Origin: Candidatus Heimdallarchaeota archaeon | GTDB taxonomy: Archaea; Asgardarchaeota; Heimdallarchaeia; Heimdallarchaeales; Heimdallarchaeaceae | Direction: 5' to 3' | Assembly: GCA_030668825.1 (NCBI GenBank) | Contig: DAOVET010000082.1 | Coordinates: 1-11,699 of the forward strand | Length of the DNA stretch: 11,699 nucleotides | Shown: positions 1 through 9,609 of the stretch, in pieces | Layout of the letters: every line of letters starts with the position of its first letter | Numbering within the stretch: the stretch's first letter is position 1 | Position numbers and translations under genes: made by a program | The notes under the pieces: generated by a model | The model's database searches: none | Told to the model about the DNA's origin: nothing | The model's input: only the letters and a program-made list of their open reading frames with translations

Positions 1-846
1 ATTATTACTGGAGCTTCCTCAGGAATTGGTAAGGCTGTATCTCTAGCCCTAGTCAAATACAAACCGAAGCTTGTTCTTGTTGCTAGAAGAAAGAAAAAGC
101 TGCTGCATACTGCAAGTTTATTGAAAAAACATAAAATCAAAACTTTATCCATTGTTGGTGATGTAAGAAATCGAGATGACAGAATGAAGATTATAGATCT
201 TACTTTGAAGACATTTGGAAGAATTGATGTTTTAATAAATAATGCAGGAGTAGGAAAAGCAAACCTGTTTTTAAAACAGCCTGAAGAAGAAATTGATCAA
301 TTAATAGAAACCAATATTCTATCCTTAATTAAGATGACACATGCAGTTGTACCTATTATGGAACAACAAGGTAAAGGTAACATTATCAACATATCTTCAT
401 CTCTTGCAATGCTCCCCGTTTATCCTTTTGCAGTTTATTGTGCAACAAAATCTGCAGTTAAAGTATTTGGTGATAGCATAAGACAAGAGCTCAAAAATTA
501 TGGGATATCAGTTTCAACCGTTTTGCCAGGACCATATAAAACAGAATTTAACAAAATATCTGGATTAAGTGATAAACTTGTGAATGGAAGTGAGGTTGGC
601 AAACTTGCTAGGAAAATTGCACTGCTCATAACTAAGCCGAAAAACAACTTGATTCAACCTAAATCATTTATCCCACTCTTGTGGATAACCACTAGATTTA
701 GTTCATTTAAAGAAAAAATTACTTACCAAATAGCAGAGCAAATAAATAGGGCAAGATTAGCCAATCTTAAGGAATTGATGTTGGAAAAATCTTTATTAAA
801 AGAAAAGGAAACGGAAATTACTGTTGAAGCAAAAACCAAAATCTAA
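1..846 (+). CDS. Classical short-chain dehydrogenase/reductase (SDR), probably NADP(H)-preferring; 5' end lies before the window
   Basis: Frame 1 is open from base 1 and reads IITGASSGIGKAVSLAL...VLVARR (TGxxxGxG Rossmann motif, basic residue after beta-2), so the ORF-track start at 121 is too late. Also has INNAG, the catalytic Ser region (NISS) and YCATK (YxxxK). Stop TAA at 844-846. Confidence 0.95.
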   Translation: MITGASSGIGKAVSLALVKYKPKLVLVARRKKKLLHTASLLKKHKIKTLSIVGDVRNRDDRMKIIDLTLKTFGRIDVLINNAGVGKANLFLKQPEEEIDQLIETNILSLIKMTHAVVPIMEQQGKGNIINISSSLAMLPVYPFAVYCATKSAVKVFGDSIRQELKNYGISVSTVLPGPYKTEFNKISGLSDKLVNGSEVGKLARKIALLITKPKNNLIQPKSFIPLLWITTRFSSFKEKITYQIAEQINRARLANLKELMLEKSLLKEKETEITVEAKTKI

Positions 847-1091
847 GCTGCTACGAAGTATTTCCCTTCAGATTTCTGTTTCTTATCTAGTTGGGAACCC
901 TTTTTGTTGACTCTAGGTCGAAGAGTTCGAGGATCTTGTCTGAAAGTTATATCCATTTTTCTCAAAAAGGTATTCATGCCATTCTGTAGTGTACCAATTC
1001 TTTTGCTTGATCCTTTCTCTCCTGGAATCCCATCGAAAACCATTAGTCTATCAGAAGTGAAATTAAGCATCATAACGTCATGCTCTACTAC
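843..1091. repeat. Left copy of a diverged 249-bp direct repeat (ABCE1 3' end)
   Basis: Ungapped alignment to 9361-9609 gives about 60 mismatches in 249 nt by hand count. Longest identical run is GAACCCTTTTTGTTGAC (895-911). Confidence 0.95.
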
Positions 1092-1097
1092 AATGGC
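843..1097 (-). pseudogene. Orphan 3' fragment of ABCE1/RLI (NBD2 H-loop to C-terminus, about 84 codons)
   Basis: Reads AIVVEHDVMMLNFTSDRLMVFDGIPGEKG...ITFRQDPRTLRPRVNKKGSQLDKKQKSEGKYFVAA; 66/82 aa identical to the C-terminus of 9361-11223. Only a TTG start in non-homologous T-rich sequence. No indels or internal stops. Confidence 0.9.
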
Positions 1098-9342: not shown

Positions 9343-9360
9343 AAACATAGAATTAACTTA

Positions 9361-9609
9361 CTATGCCACAGTAAAGTATTTCCCTTCTGCTTTTTGTTTT
9401 TTGTCTAGCTGAGAACCCTTTTTGTTGACCCTAGGACGAAGATTACGAGGATCTTGTCTAAAAGTAATATCCATCTTTCTTAGAAAGTTATTCATTCCAG
9501 CTTGTACTCTTGCGATTCTCTTAGCTTTTCCTTCAATACCAGAAATTCCATCAAAAACCATTAAACGATCAGAAAAGAAATTCAACATCATAATATCATG
9601 TTCAACAAC
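9361..9609. repeat. Right copy of the 249-bp direct repeat (current 3' end of the intact ABCE1)
   Basis: Collinear with 843-1091 from the TAG stop to the VVEHD codons; similarity is lost beyond that point. Confidence 0.95.

Follow-up and report, generated by a model that had tools for sequence, protein, structure and literature searches.

A variable gene island at one codon of ABCE1 in a Heimdallarchaeal genus, bordered by a substitute and a displaced gene end

The ABCE1 locus and its duplicated gene end

The window analyzed here is an 11,699-nt stretch of DNA from Candidatus Heimdallarchaeota archaeon that represents one whole contig (C127) of a metagenome-assembled genome (MAG; denoted G000) consisting of 138 contigs, with 90.6% completeness and 4.67% contamination. 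It encodes ABCE1, the universal, essential ribosome-recycling factor, and, separated from this gene by an island of other genes, a second copy of the last codons of ABCE1, referred to below as the orphan. The host belongs to the Asgard archaea, the group nearest eukaryotes; its genus includes the isolate AB_125 (G010 in the genome set used here), and its family holds Ca. Heimdallarchaeum aukensis and Ca. Heimdallarchaeum endolithica. The sequencing runs in which this contig is found are cold-seep and marine-sediment metagenomes.

The working ABCE1 gene (9361-11223, minus strand) is an intact open reading frame (ORF) of 620 aa and the sole full-length copy in the MAG. The protein contains the Fer4_RLI domain and two ABC_tran domains (Pfam), and solved structures of ABCE1/Rli1 match it over the full length with E-values around 1e-182. 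Codons 1-535 (9619-11223) encode the FeS domain, the first nucleotide-binding domain (NBD1), the hinge and most of NBD2, and codons 536-620 together with the TAG stop (9361-9618) form the left-hand copy of a direct repeat. The right-hand copy is the orphan (843-1097, minus strand), which consists of 84 codons and a TAG. A repeat search delimited the two copies at 856-1091 and 9374-9609 (236 nt, 78% identity, ungapped, spacing 8518), and pairwise alignment lengthens the homology to 843-1097 and 9361-9615, again with no indels; a preliminary description of this DNA, which reported the duplication in direct orientation, had estimated the identity at about 76%. At the protein level, the orphan and the working end are 78.6% identical. 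When the orphan is used as the query in a genome search, it matches ABCE1 with E=1.3e-38, and the repeat is far beyond chance because the next-best matches are ordinary ABC ATPases with at most 32% identity.

The orphan adjoins a gene for a short-chain dehydrogenase/reductase (SDR; 1-846, plus strand; Pfam adh_short, E=1.1e-50), the native downstream neighbor of ABCE1, the 5′ end of which is cut by the contig start. The stop codon of the orphan (843-845, minus strand) and the TAA of the SDR gene (844-846) overlap in the letters CTAA (843-846), as was correctly noticed in the preliminary description, and the related genome G009, in which ABCE1 and the SDR gene are not separated by an island, has the same letters at the native boundary of the two genes. 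The argument from the GIPGEKG segment of the orphan turned out to be weak: 16 of the 18 native ends in the genus have P at this position (the other 2 have S), and only 9 of the 18 read G-x-P-G.

The working gene as a chimera

The nucleotide identity between the ABCE1 genes of G000 and G009 is 91-97% in 120-nt windows up to nt 1500 of the gene and only 69-76% in windows starting after nt ~1620. Over the 5′ part, the G000 gene is 92-97% identical to those of G009, G012 and G013. The alignment breaks at column 1609, the first base of codon 536, where the native ...YE|FPAIVVEHD is replaced by ...YE|MGCLVVEHD. The tree of the 5′ part has the topology ((G010,G006),(G013,(G000,(G012,G009)))), in which the main clades have starred support. 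In the 3′-end tree, the G012 orphan is the sister of the working end of G009 (support 100/97), the orphans of G000, G018 and G012 group with G009 (83/43), and the working ends of G000, G012 and G018 form a clade of their own (99/99) that is joined by G013 and G010. The approximately unbiased (AU) test rejects the species-tree placement, in which the working ends of clade A are held together with G009 (p=0.00056).

Taken together, the sliding identity, the alignment, the trees and the AU test establish the orphan as the native end, displaced from its gene, and the working ABCE1 as a chimera of native codons 1-535 and foreign codons 536-620. The preliminary description had anticipated the displaced end and had proposed either a chimera or a foreign allele for the working gene, and its interpretation holds in the essentials. 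The separate trees for the 5′ part, the current 3′ end and the orphan, which groups with the native ends of the closest relatives free of the island, bear out the former claim, and the latter is now narrowed down to a chimera, foreign from codon 536. The reading frame of the target has been rebuilt, and the substitute end shows a ratio of nonsynonymous to synonymous divergence (dN/dS) of 0.06-0.09 in comparison with native ends.

Given that the window is an entire 11.7-kb contig of a fragmented MAG with measurable contamination, it had to be considered that the ABCE1 ends of two strains were misjoined in metagenome assembly or binning. Contigs from runs that were not flagged as the source and come from other studies nevertheless bridge both junctions, near 1095 and within 9340-9650, and differ from the window by 0-5 letters: the X10 records span 1-1199 and 8790-10278, and an X12 record spanning 9265-9941 bridges the left junction (the records of X2, a possible source run, span 1-3486 and 3457-11431). 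Furthermore, three other MAGs and one metagenome contig show the same architecture, and the repeats, which are only 78% identical, are too diverged to mislead an assembler. As far as contigs can show, an artefact is refuted, and we assign it a negligible probability.

Empty, occupied and scarred sites

The genus set that was searched for ABCE1, the SDR gene and orphan ends comprises 25 genomes. In 12 of these (G013, G009, G006, G020, G001, G023, G005, G022, G011, G002, G008 and G017), ABCE1 is directly convergent on the orthologous SDR gene, which is the empty site that the preliminary description had proposed to look for. The site is occupied in four genomes (G000, G010, G012 and G018), and in each of them an orphan end adjoins the SDR gene. 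In 8 genomes, ABCE1 and the SDR gene lie on separate contigs or the ortholog was not found, and in one (G024), ABCE1 itself was not found. The split of ABCE1 and the SDR gene across contigs in G004 and G007 was examined as a possible island and rejected, these being rearrangements with other conserved neighbors and no orphan.

G013, G009 and G006, of which G013 and G009 are close relatives of G000, each have the repeat in one copy only. The end of the G013 gene is itself chimeric: columns 1609-1755 differ at 7/147 positions from the substitute end of G000 and at 52/147 from G009, and the tail (columns 1764-1866) is native-like, differing from G009 at 10/103 positions and from the substitute end at 23/103. 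In G001, a member of a clade with 24% divergence over the ABCE1 5′ part (392/1602), columns 1609-1683 show 7 differences in 75 from the substitute type, compared to 21/75 from the sister genome G023. The ends of G013 and G001 look like scars of islands that were lost by recombination between the two repeats.

In a survey of 83 genomes of the class, orphan ends were detected only in the four genomes of this genus (one 88-aa frame, in G064, is cut by a contig end). A survey of 400 genomes of the phylum recovered frames of 110 aa or less in the same four only, among the 150 matches listed (there were 273 further matches). Duplicated ABCE1 ends flanking variable cargo, a survey of which the preliminary description had proposed, thus recur within this genus and were found in this one genus only. 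Because of this restriction, among the genomes surveyed, ABCE1 is a genus-level integration hotspot and not a general archaeal one.

Age of the substitute end and state of the orphans

The substitute end is markedly less diverged than its surroundings. Between G000 and G012, it differs at 3/258 positions compared to 89/1602 in the 5′ part (Fisher p=0.00098); between G000 and G018, the respective values are 2/258 and 29/462 (p=0.00019), and between G012 and G018, 5/258 and 24/462 (p=0.046). Thus, the substitute end is ~1% diverged among these three genomes, each of a different species, and the flanks, at 5-6%, about five times more (synonymous divergence, 0.02 vs 0.20). The step in divergence sits at the junction: in window coordinates, there are 1/24 and 3/252 differences up to position 9612, followed by 8/148.

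The orphans differ among one another by 4.9-8.5%. In comparison with native ends, their dN/dS is 0.02-0.12, and 0.03-0.08 for the orphan of the window (with G006, there are 31 synonymous and 6 nonsynonymous differences, and dS is ~1.1), and by these values they look like recently functional, recently selected sequence. The open frame and the low dN/dS could also be explained if the orphan were retained for a function, either translated into a small protein of ~87-100 aa or in another role. The frame is indeed open in 4/4 orphans, with possible TTG or ATG starts upstream, and the orphans of G000 and G018 differ by 7 synonymous and 6 nonsynonymous changes, with a dN/dS of 0.21 that is below neutral, although the count of 13 differences is small and recent orphaning accounts for the same numbers. 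The start codons and upstream peptides, however, vary by genome, with a stop in G000 where G018 has ATG, and, in terms of ABCE1 structure, the orphan piece starts at the H-loop of NBD2 and does not make up an independent domain. We regard continued use of the orphan as quite improbable.

The young substitute end, the recently working orphans and the variation of the cargo between genomes together suggest that the site was hit more than once. Along with the shared junction and the scars, these comparisons argue against a single, old, inherited insertion and favor repeated insertion, or repeated recombination with a circulating element, at a fixed site.

Insertion junctions

The insert has short terminal stretches of its own at both ends. 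The left terminal 24 nt (9337-9360), located just past the ABCE1 stop codon, are common to the islands of G000, G012 and G018 (1/24 differences in each comparison with G000), and further inward the sequences are unrelated. The right terminal DNA (1098-1163) is common to G018 (to ~1159) and, in a more diverged form, to G012 (to ~1130). The only near-identical module among the three islands is 9337-9618, that is, the left terminal DNA and the substitute end.

To within a few bases, the island type of G000, G012 and G018 and the diverged type of G010 have the same junction, and the scars of G013 and G001 start at the same column. The recurrence of one junction in two diverged element types and two scar alleles suggests that insertion is site-specific. 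The crossover lies between GAG (codon 535) and TTTCCA of the native gene, and the G012 orphan still starts with TTCCA; the bases immediately 5′ of the break belong to the 5%-diverged class. The homology between the two copies runs from the crossover to just beyond the stop codon, so that the crossover is positioned at the edge of homology, where homologous recombination cannot start, and this position points to a site-specific enzyme rather than to homologous recombination.

No terminal inverted repeats that would pair the island ends were found in the repeat search of the window, no target-site duplication was seen beyond the gene-end repeat, the window contains no tRNA gene, and there is no second copy of the right-end 66 nt in the 25 genomes of the genus. 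The joint from ~1097 to ~9619 that is expected upon excision does not occur in the run contigs, which is uninformative either way since contigs drop rare forms. In run X2, the match to the window ends at 1130 or begins at 9296 in single contigs, which continue into unrelated sequence that corresponds to none of the compared loci; these loose ends may come from a co-occurring island with yet other cargo.

A model of insertion and the evidence that bears on it

Based on the junctions, the divergence pattern and the distribution of the island, we consider it probable that a family of elements inserted repeatedly and site-specifically at one ABCE1 codon, with a recombinase that acts in trans or is of an unrecognized type. 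The comparisons show that an element of ~8.5 kb (1098-9618) is inserted in ABCE1 precisely between codon 535 (GAG) and codon 536. The left end of the element brings in-frame ABCE1 codons 536-620, so that the host retains a working, chimeric ABCE1, and the original last 84 codons have been displaced by 8.5 kb and lie beside the SDR gene as the orphan. Under the model, islands would subsequently be lost, either cleanly or via homologous recombination between the repeats, in the latter case leaving chimeric ABCE1 ends.

Several observations weigh against this model. The youth of the substitute end does not extend to the right end of the insert, which shows 3/62 differences from G018 over 1098-1159; in G012 only ~33 nt are in common, with ~6/33 differences and an indel, so that the three islands do not simply represent recent copies of a single element. 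It is possible that resident islands recombined with a circulating element over exactly the common stretch, in which case the low divergence would be a property of the substitute end alone. In the comparison of G000 with G010, the substitute ends are 20.5% different and the flanks 16.9%, a result equally compatible with old co-divergence and with separate insertions. No identical core of at least 5 nt common to both junctions was seen on inspection by eye, without a formal search; such an absence is unusual for a recent tyrosine-recombinase event. Searches for an integrase, another recombinase, a transposase or Cas1 yielded no match in the cargo of G000 and G010 (Pfam, NCBIfam and PHROGs) or in the 220-aa protein of G012 (Pfam); the G018 cargo, which by eye resembles that of G010, was left out of these scans. 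The Phage_integrase family (PF00589) has no match anywhere in the MAG. Finally, no free copy of the element was detected: a protein search of viral contigs with the substitute end found no relative, two exact 27-nt patterns had no match in viral contigs, and among the best 20 of the 80 relatives retained out of 272 in a metagenome scan, only L052 has an orphan, and this contig represents the G010-type island.

Since the islands lack a recognizable recombinase gene, the enzyme would have to act in trans, to have been lost or to be of an unrecognized type. Three small serine recombinases are encoded in the MAG, on other contigs, and tyrosine recombinases of the genus are found, among others, on contigs G018:C493 and G010:C153. 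PF00589 is sporadic in the genus (13/25 genomes) and present in 14/14 control genomes; the genus may lack a XerA-type recombinase or have a highly diverged one.

The same facts could be accommodated by one old accidental insertion, illegitimate or facilitated by homology, that occurred in the ancestor of the genus with no dedicated machinery and was followed by vertical descent and homologous recombination, namely, replacement by empty alleles, gene conversion, deletions between the repeats and turnover of the cargo as in flexible genomic islands. An inherited junction would be identical everywhere, the lack of a detectable recombinase in the islands that were scanned would need no explanation, and the cargo families do occur elsewhere in the genus; the similar divergence of substitute ends and flanks between G000 and G010 and the gene conversion between repeats that is visible in G010 are also as expected under this scenario. 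It is harder to reconcile with the dN/dS of the orphans (0.03-0.12 over a dS of ~1.1), which implies that they were working sequence for most of that time, with the contrast between the substitute end (1%) and both flanks (5-6%), the step being at the junction, and with the fully native ends of G009 and G006, which are nested among occupied genomes and would require exact restoration. Moreover, G001, with its ~24% divergence in the 5′ part, carries a patch that is only 9% diverged from the clade A substitute type. A single ancestral insertion therefore appears unlikely.

Returning to repeated site-specific insertion, a more specific version can be put forward as a tentative proposal that we hold to be possible rather than likely, namely, a still-active, integrase-less cassette system in Heimdall-group Asgard archaea. 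In such a system, a module of ~280 nt (codons 536-620 and the 24 nt) would serve as both attachment site and repair patch and would shuttle variable surface-protein cargo between species at a fixed codon. The driver of the cassette would be a recombinase encoded elsewhere or of an unrecognized kind, given that no identical core is visible at the junctions.

Comparison with known integrated elements

The e14 prophage of Escherichia coli K-12 encodes its own integrase and excises upon SOS induction. The icd gene of this host extends into the prophage, a C-terminal pseudogene, icdC, is located at the far end, and excision yields a chimera (PMC13626634). The ABCE1 island resembles the e14/icd arrangement in that the insertion is in the 3′ part of a housekeeping gene and supplies a diverged substitute end, that the displaced native end persists as a direct-repeat pseudogene, and that loss leaves a chimera, as seen in G013 and G001 (PMC13626634). 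A direct repeat at the borders, an empty site, a foreign proximal and a native distal copy, and a rebuilt intact frame are all found at ABCE1; an element-encoded tyrosine or serine integrase is not. Unlike e14, the island contains no recombinase that could be found, has variable cargo and is inserted in ABCE1 of an Asgard archaeon. Thus, the arrangement is of a known kind, and the target (ABCE1 codon 535/536), the Asgard host and the integrase-less form with variable cargo appear to be new.

Among the integrated elements of thaumarchaea, 14/68 are located in the 3′-distal part of protein genes, including that of the translation factor EF-2 (2019, PMC6563490). These elements have short att sites, and in one example 8 nt including the stop codon are replaced (PMC6563490). 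The similarity extends to insertion at a gene 3′ end, a rebuilt reading frame and verification against empty sites; in contrast, 258 nt (85 codons) are replaced in ABCE1, which makes for an unusually long substitute end, and there are signs that the site was used recently and repeatedly. ABCE1 is not among the thaumarchaeal targets named in this source, its supplementary site table aside (PMC6563490). The elements that insert at EF-2 belong to the casposons (PMC6563490). No Cas1 was found here, either in the island or anywhere in the MAG; with no Cas1, no terminal inverted repeats and no target-site duplication seen, a casposon was rejected as the identity of the island.

Integration linked to tRNA genes and aloposons have been reported for Heimdallarchaeum (PMC8813620). 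Aloposons contain tandem genes for proteins of 3000-6000 aa and a ParA-like ATPase and insert in tRNA genes (Wu et al. 2022, PMC8813620). The ABCE1 island shares with them the host group, site-specific integration, a giant gene by the attachment end and variable cargo, but has a single gene for a 1784-aa protein, no match to ParA or AAA in the cargo and no tRNA gene. By these features of gene content and insertion site, the island is not an aloposon. For elements of Atabeyarchaeia, an 11-bp motif has been reported (PMC11529989).

In a full-text search, no literature was found that joins ABCE1 or RNase L inhibitor with integration. Two further classes of elements are relevant. Cis-mobilizable elements (CIMEs) are integrase-less and keep their attachment repeats, and replacement flexible genomic islands contain varied cargo at one conserved locus. 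Like CIMEs, the ABCE1 island has kept attachment repeats and has no recombinase; unlike them, it has no cognate autonomous element that could be found. As in replacement flexible islands, the cargo differs between related genomes at one locus between conserved genes, but the junction is fixed and a gene end is duplicated, neither of which is needed for homologous exchange.

ABCE1 appears to be a new integration target for archaeal mobile elements, compared to the tRNA-linked and short-motif sites covered in the Asgard reports cited above. The chimeric genes provide a set of naturally occurring swaps within NBD2 of ABCE1 under the constraint of retained function, and the locus offers a tractable att-bearing island with no visible recombinase, pointing to a trans-acting or unrecognized enzyme. 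There is also a practical implication: single-gene trees of ABCE1, or marker sets that include it, will mix two histories in one gene when sampled from this genus.

Island cargo

The island of the window contains three genes. The one closest to the orphan (1151-1855, minus strand) encodes a 234-aa protein with hydrophobic segments at the N-terminus (signal or anchor) and the C-terminus (membrane anchor); it has no match in Pfam, NCBIfam or PHROGs. The next gene (1998-3767, plus strand) encodes a predicted secreted subtilisin-like S8 protease (Peptidase_S8, E=2.2e-54) with a signal segment at residues 9-27, repeats D2/D3 and TSP3_bac repeats (E=3.2e-18), which are of the bacterial, calcium-binding type.

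The largest gene (3988-9342, plus strand) encodes a 1784-aa predicted membrane protein in which a signal segment and an N-terminal domain of ~530 aa are followed by four hydrophobic segments between residues 560 and 755 and by a C-terminal domain of ~1000 aa; no family was found for it in Pfam, NCBIfam or PHROGs. Homologs of this protein are present in 8 of the 24 other genomes of the genus and in 0/16 genomes outside it; a full HMMER search of 1.84 billion representatives returned 4 matches, a word-indexed search 2, and the ESM Atlas 0. Members of the family (G007:C83, G009:C1, G010:C13, G023:C66, G008:C37/C41 and G005:C8) are either stand-alone proteins of 830-1040 aa or long ones of ~1660-1780 aa, with an RGN motif and a K..R..N..R stretch among the positions that are invariant. 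An AlphaFold2 model of the C-terminal 825 aa, built from an 11-row alignment, has a pLDDT of 66 and a pTM of 0.46; Foldseek found no match for it in the PDB with E<0.9, which, for a model of such quality, does not show a new fold. The protein was considered as a candidate recombinase and dropped because the junctions are present in G012 and G018, which lack it.

The cargo ranges from ~8.2 kb in G000 to ~1.5 kb and ~1 kb in two sister species, G018 and G012, respectively, and G010 contains a related 8-kb island. In G010, the cargo consists of an S8-like protein of 398 aa, an anchored protein of 220 aa, a YaaC-like protein of 301 aa and the giant protein, the gene for which, broken and divided over two contigs, is 71-77% identical to that of G000 at the nucleotide level. 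The metagenome contig L052 carries this island as well. In locus L040 (G010:C66; 1073-1383), the frame of the giant gene has several stops at ~1073-1366 and the gene is split into two ORFs, and the largest gene of this island may be decaying. The G012 island contains only the 220-aa protein, and that of G018, assembled on two contigs that overlap by an exact 150 nt, a broken S8-like gene and a protein of the 220-aa type. The G012 genome, the ABCE1 island of which has no giant gene, contains at another location (G012:C135:26989-27120) a 44-codon remnant of the C-terminus of the giant protein, 61% identical and with two stops.

A gene common to all islands could not be established: the 234-aa protein and the 220-aa proteins of G010, G012 and G018 have a similar architecture and no significant sequence similarity (E=0.55). 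Only a distant relationship links the two S8-like proteases (E=0.005). Every cargo protein for which a prediction could be made is a secreted or membrane protein, and hence the locus is probably a swappable island of cell-surface genes.

Additional observations

In three other families of the class (f5-f7, G047-G082), nearly all genomes have two full-length ABCE1 genes, the second with a frame of ~600 aa that is 35-43% identical over the C-terminal query; in the host genus and order there is one. A second ABCE1 in G015 (G015:C255:639-2399), 43-48% identical and located on another contig, is either contamination (6% in this genome) or a paralog.

The end of the contig (11300-11699) carries short dispersed repeats, with 27 other matches of ~55-115 nt across the MAG, two of which sit at contig starts; an Rfam scan found no family for them. 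These repeats are probably the reason why the contig breaks here, and the depth over 11300-11699 is ~5-9x that of the rest of the window in all four runs.

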